Source: Raja brachyura
Taxonomy: Eukaryota
NCBI GenBank assembly: GCA_963514005.1
Contig: OY740826.1
Coordinates: 2,604,001-2,668,000 of the forward strand
Length of the DNA stretch: 64,000 nucleotides
Reading direction: 5' to 3'
Positions 44,004-58,925 of the stretch are shown one piece after another. A program made the position numbers and the translations under genes. Position 1 is the first letter of the stretch, and each line of letters begins with the position of its first letter. The notes beneath the pieces are model-generated. The model saw nothing but the letters and a program-made list of their open reading frames with translations, was not told the origin of the DNA and searched no databases.

Positions 44004-44102
44004 CATAGAAACATAGAAACATAGAAAATAGGTGCAGGAGTAGGCCATTCGGCCCTTCGAGCCTGCACCGCCATTCAATGTGATCATGGCTGATCATCCA
44101 AC

Positions 44103-47100
44103 TCAGTATCCCGTACCTGCCTTCTCTCCATACCCCCTGATCCCTTTAGCCACAAGTGCCACATCTAACGCCCTCTTAAATATAGCCAATGAACTGGCCT
44201 CAACTACCTTCTGTGGCAGAGAATTCCAGAGACTCACCACTCTCTGTGTAAAGAATGTTTTCCTCATTTCGGTCCTAAAGGAATTCCCCCTTATCCTTAG
44301 ACTGTGACCCCTTGTTCTGGACTCCCCCAACATCGGGAACAATCTTCCAGCATCTAGCTTGTCCAACCCCTTAAGAATTTTGTAGGTTTCTATAAGATCC
44401 CCCCTCAATCTTCTAAATTCCATCGAGTACAAACCGAGTCTATCCAATCTTTCCTCATATGAAAGTCCTGACATCCCAGGAATCAGTCTGGTGAATCTTC
44501 TCTGTACCCCCTCTATGGCAAGGATGTCTTTCCTCAGATTTGGAGACCAAAACTGTACGCAGTACTCCAGGTGTGGCCTCACCAAAACCCTGTACAACTG
44601 CAGTAGAACCTCCCTGCTCCTATACTCAAATCCTTTCGCTATGAATGCTAACATACCATTTGCTTTCTTCACTGCCTGCTGCACCTGCATGCCTACTTTC
44701 AATGACTGGTGTACCATGACACCCAGGTCTCGTTGCATCTCCCCCTTACCTAATCTGCCACCATTCAGATAATAGTCTACCCTCATGTTTTTGCCACCAA
44801 AGTGGATAACCTCACATTTATCCACATTGTACTGCATCTGCCATGCGTCTGCCCATTCACTCAGCCTATCCAAATCACCCTGCAGCCTCCAAGCATCCTC
44901 CTCACCCCTAACTATACCCCCCAGCTTGGTATCATCTGCAAATTTGGAGATGTTGCATTGAATTCCCTCGTCCAAATCATTAATATATATTGTAAATAGC
45001 TGGGGTCCCAGCACTGAGCCTTGCGGCACCCCACTAGTCACTGCCTGCCATTCTGAAAAGGACCCGTTTACTCCTACCCTTTGCCTCCTGTCTGCTAGCC
45101 AGTTCTCTATCCACATCAATACTGAACCCCCAATACCGTGTGCTTTAAGTTTGTATGCTAATCTCTTATGCGGGACCTTGTCGAAAGCCTTCTGAAAGTC
45201 TAGATATAACACATCCACTGGTTCTCCCTTATCCACTCTACTAGTTACATCCTCGAAAAATTCTATCAGATTTGTCAGACATGATTTACCTTTCGTAAAT
45301 CCATGCTGACTTTGTCCAATGATTTCACCACTTTCCAAATGCGCTGCTATCCCATCTTTAATAACTGACTCTAGCAGTTTCCCCACTACCGATGTTAGAC
45401 TAACTGGTCTGTAATTCCCCGCTTTCTCTCTCCCTCCTTTTTTAAAAAGTGGGGTTACATTAGCTACCCTCCAATCCTCAGGAACTACTCCAGAATCTAA
45501 GGAATTTTGAAAAATTATCACTAATGCATCCACTATTTCTGTGGCTACCTCCTTGAGTACTCTGGGATGCAGACTATCTGGCCCTGGGGATTTATCGGCC
45601 TTCAATCCGTTCAATTTACCCAACACCACCTCCCGGCTAACCTGGATTTCACTCAGTTCCTCCATCTTATTTGACCTCCGTTCAACTGCTATTTCCGGCA
45701 GATTATTTATGTCTTCCTTGGTGAAGACAGAACCAAAGTAGTTATTCAATGGTCTGCCATGTCCTTGTTCCCCATGATCAATTCACCTGTTTCTGACTGC
45801 AAGGGACCAACATTTGTTTTAACTAGTCTCTTTCTCTTTACATATCTATAAAAACCTTTGCAGTCAGTTTTTATGTTCCCTGCCAGTTTCCTTTCATAAT
45901 CTATTTTCCCTTTCCTAATTAAGCCCTTTGTCCTCCTCTGCTGGATTCTGAATTTCTCCCAGTCCTCCGGTAGGCTGCTTTTTCTGGCAAATTTGTATGC
46001 CTCATCTTTTGTTTTTATACTATCCCTGATTTCCCTTGTTATCCATGGATGCACCACCTTCCCCGATTTATTCTTTTGCCAAACTGGTATGAACAACTTT
46101 TGTACTTCATCCATGCAGTCTTTAAATACCTTCCATTGCACATCCACTGTCAACCCTTTAAGAATCACCTGCCAGTCTATCTTGGCCAATTCACATCTCA
46201 TACCTTCAAAGTTACCTTTGTTCAAGTTCAGAACCCTTGTTTCTGACTTAATTTTGTCACTCTCCATCCTAATGAAGAACTCAACCATATTATGGTCACT
46301 CTTGCCCAAGGGGCCACGCACAACAAGACTGCTAACTAACCCTTCCTCATTACTCAATACCCAGTCTAGAATAGCCTGCTCTCTCGTTGGTTCCTCCACA
46401 TGTTGGTTGAGAAAACTATCCCGCATACATTCCAGGAAATCCTCTTCCTCAGCACCCCTGCCAATTTGATTCACCCAATCTACATGCAGATTGAAGTCAC
46501 CCATTATAACCGTGTTACCCTTGTTGCACGCATTTCTAATTTCCTGTTTGATGCCATCCCCAACTCCAATACTACTGTTAGGTGGCCTGTACACAGTTCC
46601 CACTAGCGTTTTCTGCCCCTTAGAGTTTCGCAGCTCTACCCATATCGATTCCACATCCTCCACGCTAATGTCCTTCCTTTCTATTGCATTAATCTCCTCT
46701 CTCACCAGCAACGCTACCCCACCTCCTTTTCCTTTTCGTCTATCCCTCCTGAATATTGAATATCCCTGGATGTTCAGCTCCCACCCTTGGTCATCCTAGA
46801 GCCAAGTCTCCGTGATTCCAACTATAGCATAGTCATTAATCGCTATCTGCACCTTCAACTCATCCACCTTATTACGAATGCTCCTCGCATTGAGACACAA
46901 AGCCTTCAGGCTTGTTTTTACAACACTCTTACTCCTTATACAATTATGTTGACAAGTGGCCCCTTTCACATCGATCCCTATTACACTTGGCCATACTCTC
47001 CTATCCCTTTGTGAGCTTTCTTCCCCGTTAATTCTGGGGTCATTAACCATCGCTTTACTCTCTTTCCCTCTAACTCCGTCCTCGACTATCCCATTTGATA

Positions 47101-48220: not shown

Positions 48221-48633
48221 AACTGCTTTCCCCCTCTGACTCACTGAGAACTCTCCTCCCACTTGGGCTAGAGCCAATCAGTGCTTTCTCCTGCTTCTCT
48301 TTGTTGCTGTTGCTTCAAAATCCACGGGAAGACTGAGTGAAGTCTGCCTGTGCTTTGCCTCTCCTTTTTAACTGCTCTCCCCCTCTGACTCACTGAGAAC
48401 TCTCCTCCCACTTGGGCTAGAGCCAATCAGTGCTTTCTCCTGCTTCTCTTTGTTGCTGTTGCTTCAAAATCCACGGGAAGACTGAGTGAAGTCTGCCTGT
48501 GCTTTGCCTCTCCTTTTTAACTGCTCTCCCCCTCTGACTCACTGAGAACTCTCCTCCCACTTGGGCTAGAGCCAATCAGTGCTTTCTCCTGCTTCTCTTT
48601 GTTGCTGTTGCTTCAAAATCCACGGGAAGACTG
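48221..48633 (-). repeat. 149-bp tandem monomers (about 2.8 copies) at the CR1 5' end
   Basis: Units start at 48221, 48370 and 48519 and are near-identical. Each contains AGCCAATCA and TGACTCA. Confidence 0.93.
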
Positions 48634-49568
48634 TGCAAGGCAGCTCTTGGGAAGACTACCTCCTGTGGCAGCTTGTTCCTTGCACCAACCACCCTTTGTG
48701 AAAAAGTTACCTCTCAGATTCCTATTAACTTTTTTCCCCCCTCTCACCTTAAACCTATTTCTTTTGGTCCTCGATTCACCTACTCTGGGCAAAAGGCTCT
48801 GTGTGTCTACCCAATCTATTCCTCTCATGATTTTATGCACCTCCATAAGAGCACCCATCATCTTCATGCATGCAATGAATAGTATCCCAGCCGACCCATT
48901 CCTGGCAACATCCTCACCAATCTTCTCCGTACCCTTTCCAGCTGTAAACATCTTTCCTATCACACGGTGCCCAGAACTGAATGCACATATTCTAAATGCG
49001 GCTTCACCAACAACGTACACAACTACAACATGACCTCCCAATTTCTAAACTGTGCGAACTGTGTGAGCAGGTGTGAATGGGTCAATTGATAGGTGGATAC
49101 AGGTGAGGGGGGCAGATGATTAGACTAGGTGGGTGAATCTAAGACCAGAGGTCATAGCCCCAGAATTGAAGGATGTTCTTTTGGGAAGGCGATAGAAACA
49201 TACAGTGGCTTGCAAAAGTTTTCATACCACATTTTGTCACGTTACAACCATAAACGTAAATGTATTTTATTGGGATTTTATGTGATAGACCAACACAAAG
49301 TGGCGCATAATTGTGAAGTGGAAGGAAAATGGTACATGGTTTTCAATTTTTTTTTACAAATAAAAAACTGAAAAGTGTGGCTTGCAAAAGTATTCAGCCC
49401 CCTTTACTCTGATACCCCTAAATAAAATCCAGTGCAACCAATTGCCTACAGAAGTCACCTAATTAGTAAATAGAGTCCACTTGTGTGTAATCTAATCTCA
49501 GTATAAATCCAGCTGTTTTGTGAAGGCCTCAGAGGTTTGTTAGAGAACATTAGTGAACAAACAGCATC

Positions 49569-50584
49569 ATGAAGCCCAAGGAACACACCAGACAGGTCAG
49601 GGATAAAGTTGTGGAGAAGTTTAAAGCAGGGTCAGGTTATAAAAAAATATCCCAAGCTTTGAACATCTCACGGAGCACTGTTCAATCCATCATCCGAAAA
49701 TGGAAAGAGTATGGCACAACTGCAAGCCTACCAAGACATGGCCTTCCACCTAAACTGACAGGCCAGGCAAGGAGAGCATTGATCAGAGAAGCAGCCAAGA
49801 GGCCCGTGGTAACTCTGGAGGAGCTGCAGAGATCCATAGCTCAGGTGGGAGAATCTGTCCACAGGACAACTATTAGTCGTGCACTCCACAAATGGGGCCT
49901 TTATGGAAGAGCGGCAAGAAGAAAGCCATTGTTGAAACAAAGCCATAAGAAGTCCCATTTGCAGTTTGCCACAAGCCATGTGGGGGACACAGCAAACATG
50001 TGGAGGAAGGTGCTCTGGTCTGATGAGACCAAAATTGAAGTTTTTGGCCTAAATGCAAAACGCTACGTGTGGCGGAAAACTAACACTGCACATCACCCTG
50101 AACACACCATCCCCACTGTGAAACATGGTGGTGGCAGCATCATGCTGTGCGGATGCTTTTCTTCAGCAGGGACAGGGAAGCTGGTCAGAGTTGATGGGAA
50201 AATGGATGGAGCCAAATACAGGGCATTCTTGGAAGAAAACATGTTAGAGTCTGCAAAAGACTTGAGACTGTGGCGGAGGTTCACCTTCCAGCATGTCAAC
50301 GACCCTAAACATACAGCCAGAGCTACAATGGAATGGTTTAGATCAAAGCATATTCATGCGTTAGAATGGCCCAAAGTCCAGACCTAAACCCAATTGAGAA
50401 TCTCTGGCAAGACTTGAAAATTGCTGTTCACAGGCGCTCTCCATCCAATCTGACTGAGCTTGAGCTATTTTGCAAAGAAGAATGGGCAAAAATTTCAGTC
50501 TCTAGATGTGCAAAGCTGGTAAAGACACACCCCAAAAGACTTGCAGCTGTAATTGTAGAACCACCTTTTGCTGCAAAGTATTGA
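49569..50584 (+). pseudogene. Tc1 transposase, disabled
   Basis: HTH region, WSDETK, KHGGG, SPDLNPIENLW. The second catalytic Asp reads V (QHVNDPKH). Frameshift near 50373. Confidence 0.93.
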
Positions 50585-50933
50585 CTCAGGGGGGCAGAAT
50601 ACTTTTGCACACCACACTTTTTAGCTTTTTATTTGTAATAAAATTTGGAAACCATGTATAATTTTCCTTCCACTTCACAATTATGCACCACTTTGTGTTG
50701 ATCTATCACATAAAATAGTAAGATTAAACGAGAACTTACCAGTTCGAAGGTTGATCTATATTTCATGAGGAGTTGCGATGAGGTATTTCGTGAAGAACCC
50801 GCCAGCACGCATGCGCGACATTCTTCAAAGTAGCGGTGTGGAATCACAGAAACCAACAGAAATGACTTGGCATAGTAAGATTGAAGAGACTCTAATTACC
50901 AGTTGAGTATGATCGAGGGTTGGGAGTGGAGGG

Positions 50934-51046
50934 CACGAAATCCCTCATCGCAACTCCTCATGAAATAAAGATCAACCTTCGAACTGGTAAGTTCTCGTTT
51001 AATCTTACTATTTCATTTCGGAGTCACGTGAGTGACTTCGTGAAGA
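50934..51046. repeat. DIRS internal complementary region (ICR)
   Basis: 50934-51009 is the reverse complement of 50717-50792 (2 mismatches). 51010-51046 is the reverse complement of 56015-56051. Confidence 0.95.
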
Positions 51047-51190
51047 CTTCAAAGCTTCTGTGATTGCACGCCCTGGACCACGTCCATGCTGACACACCAC
51101 TAGCAAGGATGGATGGGAGTAAACAATTTTCCAAACTGCTTATACTGAAAAACAAGAATAATATTTATAAATAACAAAGCAAAAAAAACC

Positions 51191-52180
51191 TTATTCGGGG
51201 ACATCTCCACGTTCTTGACCTGCATTCAGCATGGCCTCCGCGAACTGTAGAGGAGCAGCAACAGGCTTGTTGTAAAATCGCTGAAATACAGCTTCATTCG
51301 CCCATCCTGCTGTAGCGAGAATATGGTCCATGGGCACCTCCATGACCCTCGCTGCCGACGTTGATGCAGCCCTGGTGGAATGGGATTTGAAGACATTAGT
51401 GTCGATACCTGACTTACCCAAGACGATCCTGAGCCACCTGGATATCGTCTGGACTGTCACTAGATGGTGCGGTTTCTTGTGAGTGACAAGCAGGTATTTC
51501 TCCATTCCCCTTATGTTTCTCGTCACCTTGACATAGTGACGGATATGGGCGGCTAAACAGAGCCTTGCATCTGCGGGGTATGCCGGGAACTTCAGCTGCA
51601 GCCCTGTGCACCCAGGTCTATGCTGCTTTAGTAGCTCATCGATAAAGAAGACTACTTCTGCAGGGGTAGAGATCATCCTGTCAATCCGGATTTTATGCAG
51701 TGTCTGTACCCTCTGCGCTGAAGTCAGTGCTAGTAACATCACCAGTTTCATGGTGAGTTTGTCCAGCTCTAGCCCTTCCATGGGCGACCACGTCCTGAGC
51801 AGGGTTAGTACTTTCCTGACATCCCAGGTGATATTATAGCATGGTCTAGGTGGATTCGAATTGAATATACCCCGCATGAGCCTGGACACCAGCCTGTTGG
51901 ATCCTACCTCAATATTGAGGTAGAATGACAGTGCGCTTCTGGCGCTGTTGATGGCACTGTAGCTCAAGTGTTCATCATGGTGCAACCCCGCGAGGAATTC
52001 CAATACGTCGGCTATGGATGCATCGTCATATGTGATTTGAGAGCGGCCACAGTAGGCTTCCCATTTTCGGATGTGGGAGAGGTATTGCCGCCTGGTGGAC
52101 TCCCGGCACGATGCTCCAATGGTATCCATAGTTCTGAGTGACAGGCCATACTGCAGTAATGGCCGGTTTAGAATCTGCAA
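51191..52180 (-). CDS. DIRS tyrosine recombinase
   Basis: 329-aa open frame. SAM-like N-domain (YSAINSARSAL) and catalytic set SAQR, KQHRPG, HSTR, GW, FQRFY. Confidence 0.92.
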   Translation of the reverse strand: MQILNRPLLQYGLSLRTMDTIGASCRESTRRQYLSHIRKWEAYCGRSQITYDDASIADVLEFLAGLHHDEHLSYSAINSARSALSFYLNIEVGSNRLVSRLMRGIFNSNPPRPCYNITWDVRKVLTLLRTWSPMEGLELDKLTMKLVMLLALTSAQRVQTLHKIRIDRMISTPAEVVFFIDELLKQHRPGCTGLQLKFPAYPADARLCLAAHIRHYVKVTRNIRGMEKYLLVTHKKPHHLVTVQTISRWLRIVLGKSGIDTNVFKSHSTRAASTSAARVMEVPMDHILATAGWANEAVFQRFYNKPVAAPLQFAEAMLNAGQERGDVPE

Positions 52181-52311
52181 GCCAATAAATTCAGATAGCT
52201 ATGGCAAGGATGTGGCTCCCCCGACACAGGGTTAGTGACCAATTGTGGGCAACCCTCTAAGAGGACCCAAGGCTGACTGATCATGTCAAAGACCACCGGA
52301 TACCATGGTGG

Positions 52312-54170
52312 TCAGTCGGGTATAATAAGAATGCCCTTAGCAGCATCCATCTGGATTTTCTGCAATACCCGACTGATGAGGCAAAATGGGGGGAATGCAT
52401 AGAAAAACCAATTCCCCCAGTCCAGCGAGAATGCATCCATCGCCATTGCACCAGGATCTGGTTCCCACGAAACGTATGTTGGTACCTGATGGTTCAACCG
52501 TGACGCAAAGAGGTCGATATCCGGTTTACCAAATTTAGCTGTAATTTTAGCGAAGATTTGAGGATGCAACATCCACTCGATGTTGTCATTAAACTTGCGT
52601 GACCTGGTGTCTGCCACAGTATTGAGCTCACCTGGTAAATAGGTAGCTGAAATCCAAATATTCCGTTGAATACACCAGAGCCAAATTGTATTAGCCAATT
52701 CATCACATGAAATTGATCTGGTACCGCCCATATGGTTTAAATATGCCACCGCAGTGGTATTGTCTATTTGGATACGGACATGAGCGTCTGTAAGATTGGA
52801 ACAATAAGCTCGAAGTCCGTGAAATGCTGCAAGCATCTCCAAATAGTTTATCCCTTGTGACAACAACATAGTAGATTCAAGGGTGTCCCATCTTCCCCCG
52901 CAACTGGAGTAGTTGTCCGTAGCTCCCCAGCCATAGGAGCTTGCATCGGTTTGCAAGTATACCATCGGATTGGGCACAATAATGGGTTTAAATGAGTCAC
53001 TAATATGGTCCACCCACCACTGTAACTCAATCTTAGCTTTAAGAGGCAGCTGCATTGATCTATCGAAATGACCGGCGTTCTGTTTTAACGCAGAGATCTT
53101 GGCTCTTTGCAAATTTTGATAATGCAAAGGCCCATATTGGGCTGCTGGAAACAATGCTACGATCTTGCCAATCACCTTAGCAGTTTGCCTAATTGATGGT
53201 ATACTGGCACAGGCTAAATCTTGACATGCTTGGGTGACATCCCGAACCTTGTTAGCCGGTATGGTGGCCCTCATGCGATTGGAATCCACAGTGAACCCCA
53301 GATAATCCATAACCTGTGAAGGGCAGAACTTCGATTTATCTGGATGGACAATAAACCCCATTTCCTGAAAAAGTGCCACAGTGGCTGAGACTACATGTTC
53401 AGCCGACTCCAGGGTGTTGCCAACAATCAATATATCATCCAAATAGGCCATCACTATATGATGTTGCTTCCGTAGCCTGGCCATAATGGGTTTCAGTAAT
53501 TTAGTAAACAATCTAGGGGCGGTAGTAAGCCCATTTGGCAAAGCCCTGTATTGCCAGAGTTGATCCATCCAGACAAATTTTAAGAACTTCCTGTGGTGTT
53601 TCCGAATGGATACAGAATAGTATGCATCTTTTAAATCAATGCATGCCATAAAGCAGCCATGAGAAAGCAATGACTTGGCTGTTTCGAAAGTGTCCATTTT
53701 GAAATGGGTGTAAGTTACAAAAGTATTCAAATGGGTCAGATCAATAATAACCCGACATCCTACATCCTTCTTGGGCCTGGTAAATATATTTGATACAAAT
53801 TCAATTGGTTCGTGTATAGTTTTTTCTATCACGCCTTTTTCTTCTAACCTTAAGATCTCAGCAAGCCTGCTGCCTGGTCAACGGCAGACAGTGTAAATGT
53901 CCGATTGGGCATATACTGGGATGGAAGAATGTCGCCGTTAATAAATTCAATTTCATGACCTTGAATACTTTGTAAAATAAATTTATCGGAAGTGATAGTT
54001 TCCCACGCCTCCAAGAAAGACCGAAGGCGCCCACCAACATGTGAAGTTAAACACACAGGTACATGAAAACCAGACCGCCTTACCTTCCTGGTTACCGGCA
54101 GTCCCTGACATGTTTGGCGGGTCGTGGAGGTGCTGGGTTGGGCTGGTGCTGTGGCGTCCGCATCTTCCAC
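52312..54170 (-). pseudogene. DIRS RT/RNase H plus N6-adenine methyltransferase-like domain, with lesions
   Basis: VGGRL..F...W (53850-54170) is frameshifted into IDLKDAYY, LPNGL..APR.F, YLDD, YLGF. RNase H motifs TDAS..GWG, INYLE, DNTTA, ADTRSR. MT-like DIDLFAS..DAF..YAFPPF. A TGA occupies the usual Trp after IIPD. Confidence 0.9.
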
Positions 54171-55888
54171 GGAGGCCGTTGCGGGCCTTGCCCTAAAAAA
54201 GGCCGTGGCTGCTGGGGCTGCTGGTATTGAGGAGGAGCTGGAGCGTAGGTCCGTGTCGGTCTGGAGACAGGGCCTCGTGGCCTAATAAATGGCGCTTTCT
54301 TGGCCGGCGGCCTGGGGGCGATCTGAGACCGCATGAGTCCCACCGTTTTGGCATGTTCATCCAGCTCCTTAACCCTCTTCGGGAGGTCTTCCCTGAACAG
54401 CTGTCTGGGCGGTGGTGGAGGAGGCGCCTTGCACAACCCAGCAAATTTTGGGTTGAGCGTGGGGCGGATGCTGCTTTTCCTGAAGGCATTTATTTTGTGC
54501 TGAGTAGCACATAGCAGCGCGAGAGCATCCTCCTGCTCTAGGTTGAGGTCCTTTCCATCCACCGACCGCGCAAACACGGTGATTCCAGCCGTGAGCAGCC
54601 TCAGGATGCGTTGGAGCTTGATCTCCTGAGTCCTGATGGCTGTGCCTATGTTGCCCCAGATCGGCGTATTGACCACGGGCACGTTGAGGGAGTTACAGTT
54701 GGATGGGGCTTTGTGCCTGTTGATGGCCTGTGGTAGAACTTCCTCCTGGAGCTGGTGGTTAGTGAGGAAGTCCACAGTGGCAGCCAGTTTGGGGTTGAGG
54801 GGAAGTCCCGCTGTTTCCGGAGAAGCAAATTTCGCCGCCACATCCAGGAGTTCCTCCTGCGGCACCTCGGATGGAACCGGTGTAGGGTCTGAAAATTCCT
54901 CCTCTTCTGGCTGCCTCAGGCTGGCTGTTGAGACTGGTGAAACCTCCCTGTGCCCTTCGATGCTGGATGCCTCCTGCCGTTGGTTCTGTAAAAGGAGCTC
55001 CAACATCCGTTCCATATGGTCAATACGCCCTTCGCCCTGAACACTCGGGCGGTCGGAGTCCTCATGCTCTGATATACTGCTGAGGCTCCTTTCATCGGCC
55101 CGCACCTCGTCGAGGTGAACCCGGTGCCGGAAGTTGTCGCTGCCAGCCGCCGCAGCAAAGCTGAGCGATTCCCGCGCGGGAGGCGTGTTCAAACGCCTTT
55201 GTTTGGCGGAGCCTAATGCCGCTGCCACGGAGGGCAAATGCGGCGGGGAGCCGGCACCCAATGCCTCAGCACGGTGACCCAATGCCCGCGCGGGCTTGCC
55301 GGCTGCCCACATCGTGGACCTTGCCGAAGCATGGTCTCGTCCTCCCATCCATGGGGGACTCGGCGACCGTGGCGGGACTCCTCCCAAATGCCCCGTCCCG
55401 GCCTCGGTGGTTGGGGAGTCAACACTGGACCTCGCAGTGGACTTGAGTCCCGCCTTTGCACCAGTCCGCTGTTTGGCGGCAGGTGATGCCTTTGCCCCTG
55501 AGGGGTTAGGCTTCCGGGCTCCATCCCTCCTTCTTTTCCGAGGGCTGAGGGAGAAGGGCCGTGCAGCCGCACGCGAGCCCTTGCCCAGGTCCGCCAACGG
55601 GCCCGTTGGCGACCTCAATGCGGAGGCAGGGTCTACCTGCTCCGGCGGCACACCGCAGTCCAGCTCCTCGAACTCCTCCCCGGAGCTGCGGTGTATCAGC
55701 GGGTCTGGTCCTGCAACAACAGGGCTCCCCGGTTTCCCCGCCTTCTTCCCGGCCTGTCTCGCAGGTGCAGCCGATGATGAGGGCTCCGGGACAGGTGGCC
55801 GGCGACTCCGGACGGATGTCTTGCGGCCTCTCGAACTCCCCTCCAACCTCTTGCTGAAAGAGAAAAAAGTACTTGCAGCAAGGACCAA
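54092..55888 (-). CDS. DIRS ORF1 (Gag-like)
   Basis: About 598-codon open frame in the Gag position. Low-complexity N-half and a helical C-half (PSNCNSLNVPVVNTPIW...RPTLNPKFAGLC..LF..DL). True start codon is uncertain. Confidence 0.8.
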   Translation of the reverse strand: MVLAASTFFSFSKRLEGSSRGRKTSVRSRRPPVPEPSSSAAPARQAGKKAGKPGSPVVAGPDPLIHRSSGEEFEELDCGVPPEQVDPASALRSPTGPLADLGKGSRAAARPFSLSPRKRRRDGARKPNPSGAKASPAAKQRTGAKAGLKSTARSSVDSPTTEAGTGHLGGVPPRSPSPPWMGGRDHASARSTMWAAGKPARALGHRAEALGAGSPPHLPSVAAALGSAKQRRLNTPPARESLSFAAAAGSDNFRHRVHLDEVRADERSLSSISEHEDSDRPSVQGEGRIDHMERMLELLLQNQRQEASSIEGHREVSPVSTASLRQPEEEEFSDPTPVPSEVPQEELLDVAAKFASPETAGLPLNPKLAATVDFLTNHQLQEEVLPQAINRHKAPSNCNSLNVPVVNTPIWGNIGTAIRTQEIKLQRILRLLTAGITVFARSVDGKDLNLEQEDALALLCATQHKINAFRKSSIRPTLNPKFAGLCKAPPPPPPRQLFREDLPKRVKELDEHAKTVGLMRSQIAPRPPAKKAPFIRPRGPVSRPTRTYAPAPPQYQQPQQPRPFLGQGPQRPPWKMRTPQHQPNPAPPRPAKHVRDCR

Positions 55889-56411
55889 CCAACTTAAGGT
55901 TAGTACAACTTACCTTAGCGGTCCCTTATGAAGGACTGGCGGGGAGCGCACCCCACCGCCAGCCGTCGACAGCAACGCGTTGCGATGATATGTCGCGCAT
56001 ATATGCTGGCGGGTTCTTCACGAAGTCACTCACGTGACTCCGAAATGAAATCCCAATTAAATACATTTACGTTTGTGGTTGTAACGTGACAAAATGTGGA
56101 AAAGTTCAAGGGGTATGAAAACATTTGCAAGCCACTGTAGACACAGAAACATAGAAAATAGGTGCAGGAGGAGGTCATTCGGCCCTTCGAGCCAGCACCG
56201 CCATTCATTGTGATCATGGCTGATCGTCCGCTATCAATAACCCGTGCCTGCCTTCTCCCCATATCCCTTGACCTCACTAGCCCCTAGAACTCTATCCAAC
56301 TCGCTCTTAAATCCATCCAGTGATTTGGCCTCCGCTGCCCTCTGTGGCAGGGAATGCCACAAATTCACAAATCTCTGGGTAAAAAGTTTTTTCTCACCTC
56401 AGTCTTAAATG

Positions 56412-58925
56412 ACATAGAAAATAGGTGCAGGAGTAGGCCATTCGGCCCTTCGAGCCTGCACCGTCATTCAATATGATCATGGCTGATCATCCAACTCGGT
56501 ATCCTGTACCTGCCTTCTCTCCATACCCCCTGATCCCTTTAGCCACAAGGGCCACATCTAACTCCCTGTTAAGTATAGCCAATGAACTGGCCTCAACTAC
56601 CTTCTGTGGCAGAGAATTCCAGAGACTCACCACTCTCTGTGTGAAAAATGTTTTCCTCATCTCGGTCCTAAAGGAATTCCCGCTTATCCTTAGACTGTAA
56701 CCCCTTGTTCTGGACCTCCCCAACATTGGGAACAATCTTCCTGCATCTAGCCTATCCAACCCCTTAAGAATTTTGTAAGTTTCTAGAAGATCCCCCTCAG
56801 TCTTCTAAATTCTAGCGAGTTCAAGCCAAGTCTATCCAGTCTTTCCTCATGTGAAAGTCCTGATATCCCAGGAATCAGTCTGGCGAACCTTCTCTGTACC
56901 CCCTCTATGGCAAGAATGCCTTTCCTCAGATTTGGAAACCAAAACTGTATGCAATACTCCAGGTGTGGCCTCACCAAAACCCTGTACAACTGCAGTAGAA
57001 CCTCCCTGCTCCTATACTCAAATCCTTTCGCCATGAATGCTAACATACCATTTGCGTTATTCACTGCCTGCTGCACCTGCATGCCTACTTTCAATGATTG
57101 GTGTACCATGACACCCAGGTCTAGTTGCAGCTCCCCTTTTCCTAATTTGCCACCATTCAGATAATAGTCTACCATCCTGGTTTTGCCACCAAAGTGGATA
57201 ACCTCACATTTATCCACATTATACTGCATCTGCCATGCATTTTCCCACTCACCCAGCCTATCCAAGTCACCTTGCAGCCTCCTAGCATCCTCCTCACACC
57301 TAACACTACCCCGCAGCTTAGTGTCATCCGCAAACTTGGAGATGTTGCATTCAATTCCCTCGTCCAAATCATTAATATATGTTGTAAATAGGTGGGGCTG
57401 CAGCACTGAGCCTTGCGGTACCCCACTAGCCATTGCCTGCCATTCTGAAAAGGACCCGTTTACTCCTACCCTTTGCTTCCTGTCTGCCAGCCAGTTCTCT
57501 ATCCACATCAATACTGAACCCCCAATACCGTGTGCTTTAAGTTTGTATACTAATCTCTTATGTGGGACCTTGTCGAAAGTCTGAAATTCTAGATATAACA
57601 CATCCACTGGTTCTTCGTTATCCACTCTACTAGTTACATCCTCGAAAAATTCTATAAGATTAATCAGATTTACCTTTCGTAAATCCATGCTGACTTTGTC
57701 CAATGATTTCACCAATTTCCAAATGTACTGCTATCCCATCTTTAATAACTGACTCTTGCCGTTTCCCCACTACCGATGTTAGACTAACTGGTCTGTAATT
57801 CCCATTTTCTCTCTCCCTCCTTTTTTAAAAAGTGGGGTTACATTAGCTACCCTCCAATCCTCAGGAACTACTCCAGAATCTAAGGAGTTTTGAAAAATTA
57901 TTACTAATGCATCCGCTATTTCTGTGGCTACTTCCTTGAGTACTCTGGGGTGCAGACTATCTGGCACTGGGGATTTATCAGCCTTTAATCCATTCAATTT
58001 ACCCAACACCACTTCCAGGCTAACCTGGATTTCACTCAGTTCCTCCACCTTATTTGACCCCCGGTCCCCTGCTATTTCCGGCAGATTATTTATGTCTTCC
58101 TTAGTGAAGACAGAACCAAAGTAGTTATCCAATTGGTCTGCCATGTCCTTGTTCCCCATGATCAATTCACCTGTTTCTGACTGCAAGGGACCTACATTTG
58201 TTTTAACTAATCTCTTTCTCTTCACATATCTATAAAAGCTTTTGCAGTCAGTTTTTATGTTCCCTGCCAGTTTTCTTTCATAATCTATTTTCCCGTTCCT
58301 AATTAAGTCCTTTGTCCTCCTCTGCTGGACTGAATTTCTCCCAGGCCTCTGGTAGGCTGCATTTTCTGGCTAATTTGTATGCTTCATCTTTTGTTTTTAT
58401 ACTATCCCTGATTTCCCTTGTTATCCATGGATACACTACCTTCCCTGATTTATTCTTTTGCCAAACTGGGATGAACAATTGTTGTAGTTCATCCATGCAG
58501 TCTTTAAATATCTTCCATTGCACATCCACTGTCAACCTTTTAAGAATCACTTGCCAGTCTATCTTGGCCAATTCACATCTCATACCTTCAAATTACCTTT
58601 GTTTAAGTTCAGAACCCTTGTTTCTGACTTAATTATGTCACTCTCCATCCTAATGAAGAATTCAACCATATTATGGTCAGTCTTGCCCAAGGGGCCACGC
58701 ACAACAAGACTGCTAACTAACCCTTCCTCATTACTCAATACCCAGTCTAGAATAGCCTGCTTTCTCGTTGGTTCCTCTACATGTTGATTTAGAAAACTAT
58801 CCTGCATACATTCCAAGAAATCCTCTTCCTCAGCACCCCTGCCCATTTGATTCAACCAATCTATATGTAATTTCCTGTTTGATGCCATCCCCAACTCCAC
58901 TACTACTGTTAGGTGGCCTGTACAC
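56412..58925 (-). mobile_element. 5'-truncated, more decayed CR1 of the same family as 44004-48633
   Basis: Colinear high similarity to 44020-46595, with several additional frameshifts. Confidence 0.93.

Follow-up and report, generated by a model that had tools for sequence, protein, structure and literature searches.

Copies of a DIRS1-like retrotransposon in Raja brachyura point to a single crossover inside a shared ATT and to different target preferences of sister lineages

We have analysed a stretch of 64,000 nucleotides (nt) from Raja brachyura (contig OY740826.1), referred to as the window, within which positions are counted, and describe a DIRS1-like retrotransposon of approximately 5.3 kb that lies at 56051-50713 on its minus strand, inside a Tc1 transposon (Table 1), together with further copies of its family. 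The family is a known one, and the element is typical of it. Inverted terminal repeats (ITRs), a right extension, two internal complementary regions (ICRs) on a 3-bp junction, a reverse transcriptase (RT), a recombinase, ATT termini and the lack of a target-site duplication (TSD) are common to DIRS1-like retrotransposons (PMC3266345, PMC9210276; these and the papers below are cited for passages of their text). In the window copy the ITR arms span 43 nt with 86% identity, the inverted repeats are accompanied by a right extension that pairs with the ICR only, two ICRs near the 3' end overlap on the 3-bp circular junction ATT, and the termini are of the N-T-T type without TSD, as expected for this group. 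The RT frame matches RVT_1 in Pfam (E 9.8e-22, above the cut-off), and the recombinase, encoded by the last open reading frame (ORF), matches Phage_int_SAM_4 above and Phage_integrase below the cut-off; a match to a Dam-type methyltransferase (E 0.0024) also stays below it. No Pfam match to RNase H was found in the element frames of the window, and the translation shows an acidic D-E-D motif that may belong to an RNase H. The 605-aa frame of ORF1, in the place expected for gag, has no Pfam match, and the pol frame is broken near 53850-53877. The window copy is a young element whose nearest independent relatives are approximately 1.9-2.1% away. The best named homologues, at 52-54%, come from a skate. 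Note that a locus 92 kb off on the same contig (L031, G000:C50:2744651-2752650) is 99.97% identical to window positions 48451-56447 over 8 kb; judged by its sequence, it is best read as a recent segmental or assembly duplication that includes the Tc1 and flanks, not as a second insertion. A decayed second copy of the last 40 bases of the element lies at 50872-50914 (plus strand), in the loop that separates the right terminus from the ICR.

Table 1. Features of the DIRS1-like element, its Tc1 host and the neighbouring LINE site in the window
Feature	Position	Strand	Remark
Intact left terminal inverted repeat (TIR) of host Tc1	49201..49409	+	empty-site control
Tc1 transposase	49557..50584	+	two frames
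Right Tc1 TIR, inner part of split	50583..50715	+	
3' ATT	50714..50716	-	A (50716) from element, TT from target; 50713 = target T matching by chance
DIRS1-like retrotransposon, Gln38/T-type lineage	50716..56050	-	element-derived bases if crossover A^TT; 5' end 56050, 3' end 50716
Right terminus	50717..50821	-	conserved ITR 50779-50821; ICR-complementary end 50717-50792; lineage-diagnostic bases 50726, 50778
ICR	50934..51046	+	copy of 3' end, junction ATT 51010-51012, copy of 5' end
Tyrosine recombinase frame	51191..52198	-	335 aa between stops; Gln at residue 38 (52085-52087)
pol region	52312..54281	-	split into frames 53850-54281 and 52312-53877; RT; weak match to a Dam-type methyltransferase
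ORF1, gag position	54092..55909	-	605 aa stop to stop
Left terminus	55990..56048	-	divergent part and conserved ITR 55990-56032
5' ATT	56049..56051	-	A (56051) from target, TT from element; 56048 = element's own first T
Right Tc1 TIR, outer part of split	56051..56139	+	
Empty copy of the LINE (long interspersed nuclear element) site (codons ..VSLWNSLP..)	56604..56628	-	site filled elsewhere by Arg38 sister lineages

The element splits the right TIR of its Tc1 host, and the left TIR, which is intact, provides the pre-insertion target; its reverse complement reads cacataAAATcccaat. Deleting the element leaves flanks that can be aligned to this repeat over approximately 200 nt with no gap at the site. 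A previous reading of the locus from its letters alone, the sequence-only reading, had recognized this internal control and had rendered the two junctions correctly, cacataAAAT-agtaag at 50707-50722 and cgaaatgAAAT-cccaat at 56041-56057 with the AAAT copies at 50713-50716 and 56048-56051, as well as the end-to-end junction spelled by the ICR, aatcttact-ATTT-catttcgg, with ATTT at 51010-51013. It went on to define a 4-bp crossover core, ATTT, and suggested that the flanks of all family copies be aligned for this word at both ends. The alignment does not bear out the core. Among the 40 loci closest to the window copy, four were dropped for want of a 3' end, and the 36 with both ends comprise 35 independent copies once L031 is removed as a duplicate. 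The 5' end reads ATTT in 33 of these, but the fourth base at the 3' end is variable (ATTA 14, ATTC 10, ATTT 8, AATT 1, AATA 1, AATC 1), and this rules out the 4-bp core. The fourth T on the 5' side is the element's own first base, and the match at the window locus is due to chance, the target also having had a T. Copies with a T in fourth position at the 3' end, 9 of 35, would mimic a 4-bp core in approximately one case in four. ATT is also the commonest terminus reported for DIRS1 elements (PMC3266345).

The position of the crossover within the three letters emerges from the copies in which they are not all the same. Exact anchors yielded 7,614 5' ends and 11,104 3' ends genome-wide, filtered against most ICRs and to be taken as lower bounds, and approximately 94-98% of ends read ATT. 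The middle base is other than T at 481 of the 3' ends (4.3%) versus 10 of the 5' ends (0.13%), a 33-fold difference, and the first base is other than A at 140 of the 5' ends (1.8%) versus 85 of the 3' ends (0.8%). Where both ends of a copy were available, left-GTT copies had ATT on the right in 11 of 11 cases (12 fetched), and right-AAT or right-AGT copies had ATT on the left in 11 of 11 (20 fetched, 9 lacking a usable other end). The same odd base was found on both sides in none of 42 variant copies, which excludes a TSD, in agreement with the sequence-only reading. Empty homologues give the same picture: the site of L161 reads GTT in 10 of 11 and the G remained on the left, those of L173 and L189 read AAT in 18 of 18 and AGT in 3 of 3 and the odd base stayed on the right, and that of L049, an insertion at the LINE site discussed below, reads AAT in 9 of 9. 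As the first base stays left and the second goes right, there is a single crossover point inside the shared word, A^TT. If two exchanges took place, every second product would carry the 8-base spacer of the element in front of its 5' end; it was seen there in 0 of 40 loci and 0 of 99 non-ICR rows, and this spacer has no match to the targets. A single exchange with subsequent replication would yield precisely this pattern. Compared with the three-base model in the literature, the family data locate the crossover more precisely.

Some copies show unusual junctions beyond these polarity classes. At G000:C3:73878824-73878858 and C4:63721122-63721156 the 3' end is followed by a short repeat of the element's last bases, possibly through junction slippage or double joining. 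At the right flank of L056 (G000:C3:30304001-30312000) an element of a related DIRS family begins with its 5' end, the insertion lying exactly at the left junction of that other element.

The family divides into two types of copies, distinguished by the base ten positions inside the 3' end. Loci lacking an end and L172, L204 and L205, whose ends were mis-assigned, were dropped, leaving 151, and 4 of 128 rows with low coverage were removed from the tree set. The ICR mirrors the diagnostic base in 147 of 150 copies; in the remaining three (L086, L160, L185) ICR and 3' end differ, and these are possible recombinants between the lineages. Copies of the window type carry a glutamine at residue 38 of the recombinase in 35 of 36 cases, and the base following ATT is A in 19, T in 13 and C in 3 of 35. 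Those of the other type carry an arginine in 82 of 88, with four of the six exceptions reading CAA or TGA, products of CpG decay, and among the Arg38 copies a C follows ATT in 80 of 82, or in 47 of 49 when the LINE site is left aside. The distance to the window lineage is only 2-6% for seven Arg-type copies and 5-33% for other lineages of both types; the state of residue 38 is therefore not simply a matter of ancestry. Between the near sisters four residues differ, 38, 114, 224 and 228, and the differences at 38 and 114 hold across all lineages.

A structural model of the recombinase (pLDDT, the predicted local distance difference test score, of 93) has Cre as its best fold match with E 3e-10. 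A single-sequence search of the PDB with the recombinase gave no match, and it was a profile search that aligned residue 38, weakly, with residue 44 of Cre in helix B. Going by the usual contact preferences of arginine, Arg38 would read the G opposite the C. In Cre, helix B is a recognition helix of the major groove, residue 43 sets base specificity and so do its neighbours in the helix (PMC5766204, PMC7438526).

The preference of the Arg-type copies extends to one position in a LINE. With 1,612 5' and 1,707 3' junctions versus 90,378 empty exact sites, this position is occupied to approximately 1.8%, which is approximately 180-fold above the average ATT and 47-fold above the average ATT-C-Y; these fold values derive from a 302-kb local background and an assumed share of 55%, 47 of the first 100 3'-end rows being of that type. 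By their terminus, 99 of the first 100 3' junctions at the LINE site are Arg-type. We take the host to be a CR1-like LINE, and translation of the site places it in codons of the RT tail. A position-weight matrix built from 50 non-LINE sites gives the LINE site 1.6% of the total weight (0.29% by count) versus 13-21% of the ends seen; the matrix is small, and L142, a borderline case, was grouped with the LINE sites here, in the residue-38 counts and in the comparison of element and host distances. Additive preference multiplied by abundance was rejected as the full explanation, as it leaves about ten-fold unaccounted for. In four public sequencing runs, no junction of LINE and element was found among the listed pieces with 31 letters on both sides.

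An accumulation of this kind might also arise if a LINE had once received a single insertion and had carried it along as cargo, and the many hosts do belong to one abundant LINE subfamily and all show one orientation. Cargo would be truncated at its 5' side, but the elements at the LINE site are full-length with LINE sequence on both sides and the junction counts are nearly equal. Copies from the LINE site and from elsewhere interleave on trees, and the distances between elements are unrelated to those between their hosts (Spearman -0.03, 595 pairs), with elements 0.2% apart residing in hosts 39% apart. The cargo explanation is largely refuted by these unrelated distances, and we regard it as very improbable; the copies at the LINE site are repeated independent insertions, unrelated to host ancestry.

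The window itself contains two copies of one CR1-like LINE, at 44011-46486 and 56141-58867, 93-96% alike and 12.4 kb apart. On G000:C1:0-27 Mb, near a contig end, insertions at the LINE site are regionally enriched, accounting for 33 of the first 100 5' ends under a strict pattern versus 21% genome-wide. A second, weaker recurrent target, represented by L142 and by rows with an odd first base, lies in a repeat resembling a short interspersed nuclear element (SINE); its empty copies read GTT in 8 of 9 locally, and the ends vary.

The data also bear on which strand is exchanged. Target information is concentrated on the right of the cut, the side on which the cleaving monomer would be located, with 4.3 versus 0.5 bits (n=51) and 1.9 versus 0.9 bits (n=31). 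In hand counts, 71 of 88 listed cases in which G replaces the A have a T before it, as the element itself does at that position, and T precedes ATT in 15 of 98 listed rows and 15 of 51 outside the LINE site, as if pairing to the left of the cut rescued a G wobble. This is not an artefact of mutation, because T-A-T at the 3' ends changes far less (85 of 11,104, all three changes). Taken together, the target information on the right and the T before G favour the antisense strand. The ICR consists of the last 79 and the first 34 bases of the element, copied around the junction; its arms match the 3' end over 83 nt at 96% and the 5' end over 37 nt at 100%, far above chance, and the 3' end and the ICR fold with -107 kcal/mol (z = -19). 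Its junction has the layout AA-8 bp-TT, the usual one for a site of a tyrosine recombinase. In Dictyostelium, DIRS-1 cDNA is single-stranded, antisense and dependent on the ICR, and inverse polymerase chain reaction (PCR) of the circle junction failed (PMC7192593). On a single antisense strand of this kind the ICR would pair with both ends and would be the natural partner strand. Note that the inverse PCR target put forward in the sequence-only reading for extrachromosomal circles is not diagnostic as written, because the string is present in every genomic ICR.

We propose that the two ends of the antisense cDNA would pair with the ICR on the same strand, which would thereby become the partner strand of a recombinase site of the form AA-8 bp-TT. 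The recombinase would cut the antisense strand only, between A and TT, with TT and the bases to its right as the protein-binding arm, and pairing would be required only at the A, plus the preceding base where the A is mismatched. Replication would resolve the junction, as it does for integron junctions, and residue 38 in recognition helix B would set the preference for C after ATT. That joining takes place at A^TT without target duplication, by an antisense-only swap of the cDNA junction held by the ICR, with replication completing the insertion, we consider probable, though well short of assured. A bolder analogy would have DIRS elements integrate in the manner of integron cassettes, with the ICR acting not just as a template in the repair of the ends but also as the partner strand within a folded, single-stranded att site, N^TT cut once, and a change from Gln to Arg that retargeted the sisters to ATT-C and the LINE codon; this we advance tentatively, leaning slightly against it as it stands.

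Several observations weigh against this account. The polarity of the first base is only 2.4-fold in raw counts, and the genome-wide base counts cover the first and middle positions of the word; the 5' and 3' anchors sample different copies, the 3' set including sister families and 6 ICR-like rows among its first 100. Twelve paired copies (20 right-GTT copies fetched) combine a left ATT with a right GTT; in one of them, L195, empty homologues have an A, which suggests a later mutation, and the other right-GTT copies are unaccounted for. The single empty homologue of L168, a left-GTT copy, reads ATT. Eight copies (L051, L073, L104, L109, L125, L142, L150, L155) read ATT at both ends in repeats whose empty copies nearby are mostly without ATT; this would reflect either a choice of rare ATT variants or the overwriting of some mismatches at both ends. 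Residue 38 varies together with residue 114 and with two bases in the right terminus, and the contrast between Gln and Arg rests on few lineages. The fold comparison ranks Cre first and the integron integrase 42nd, and the steps of the mechanism are all read from fixed genomic copies.

The single crossover with replicative resolution could be retained with a double-stranded circle as the substrate or with the sense strand exchanged. Such a version agrees with every polarity count, and it can draw on the published DIRS-1 model, which turns the circle double-stranded (PMC7192593), and on the double-stranded attG and attI sites of integrons, which can likewise be cut once (bioRxiv 10.1101/2022.09.11.507474). 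It does not explain, however, why a second exchange should never take place, and cutting of the sense strand predicts target information on the left of the cut, whereas it was found on the right; we consider this version unlikely, although it deserves serious attention. Less probable again is the textbook route (PMC3266345), in which a double-stranded circle undergoes two exchanges over an identity of 3 bp, ATT, and the heteroduplex is concealed by biased repair. The predominance of ATT ends accords with it, and the right-GTT copies, like the ATT/ATT copies in non-ATT repeats, could be products of repair. It predicts, however, that the odd middle base appears at either end, against the observed 33:1, and a single repair bias would not send first and middle bases to opposite ends. 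As for the 4-bp core, which is true at the window locus and at 33 of 35 5' ends, the 8 of 35 ATTT at the 3' ends and the C found there in nearly all Arg38 copies leave it with practically no probability.

In the DIRS1 papers the trinucleotide is treated as an identical crossover region, whereas here one crossover lies inside it and its bases are assigned to element and target (PMC3266345, PMC9210276). Table 3 of PMC3266345 lists single elements whose middle base differs between start and end, namely ATT/AAT, GTT/GAT, TTT/TAT and CTT/CAT. The passages on DIRS1 in the same two papers contain neither a lineage-level target switch nor a preference for a LINE site. Dictyostelium DIRS-1 shares the dependence on the ICR and the single-stranded antisense cDNA but differs in preferring pre-existing DIRS-1 copies, and PMC7192593 retains, as the form that integrates, a double-stranded circle; the polarity seen here can do without one. 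In the DIRS literature searched we found no crossover polarity, one-strand exchange or LINE hotspot; the work of Goodwin and Poulter from 2001, that of Poulter and Butler from 2015, and Repbase may cover part of this, and the novelty of the polarity and of the LINE hotspot is provisional.

In integrons, cassettes are inserted into genomes at GWT through one cut in the bottom strand, with preferred bases on the right and hotspots, and the attC x attG/attI reaction likewise employs a tyrosine recombinase and an N-W-T word cut after its first base (G^TT in attG) (bioRxiv 10.1101/2022.09.11.507474). In the DIRS ends, too, there is one crossover, placed behind the first base of an N-W-T word. The likeness would concern how the elements work, not membership: the DIRS enzyme is closer to Cre by fold, its substrate is made by reverse transcription, and membership was rejected since the window contains no attI/attC array and IntI, at rank 42, falls behind Cre. 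Cre makes two exchanges and requires homology in the spacer; the 8-bp DIRS spacer, without homology to the targets, sets these elements apart from it.

The specificity of the DIRS recombinase and the integration of the cDNA are stated to be untested in passages of PMC7192593. With more than 10,000 natural products, the family and the polarity of its mismatches turn the 40-year-old circle model into a sharp question of strand, place and substrate. If the proposed one-strand exchange is true, animal retrotransposons possess a counterpart to the single-stranded recombination of integrons. If the change from Gln to Arg did cause the retargeting, a vertebrate tyrosine-recombinase retrotransposon has a natural specificity switch. 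At a distance of 2-6%, the Gln38 and Arg38 sister lineages are nearly identical and amount to an experiment of nature on the specificity of a recombinase; the LINE site illustrates in what way an element of this kind can accumulate within other repeats.

Apart from the element and its host, the window holds three tandem units of 149 nt at 48221-48667, two of which are 99% alike.

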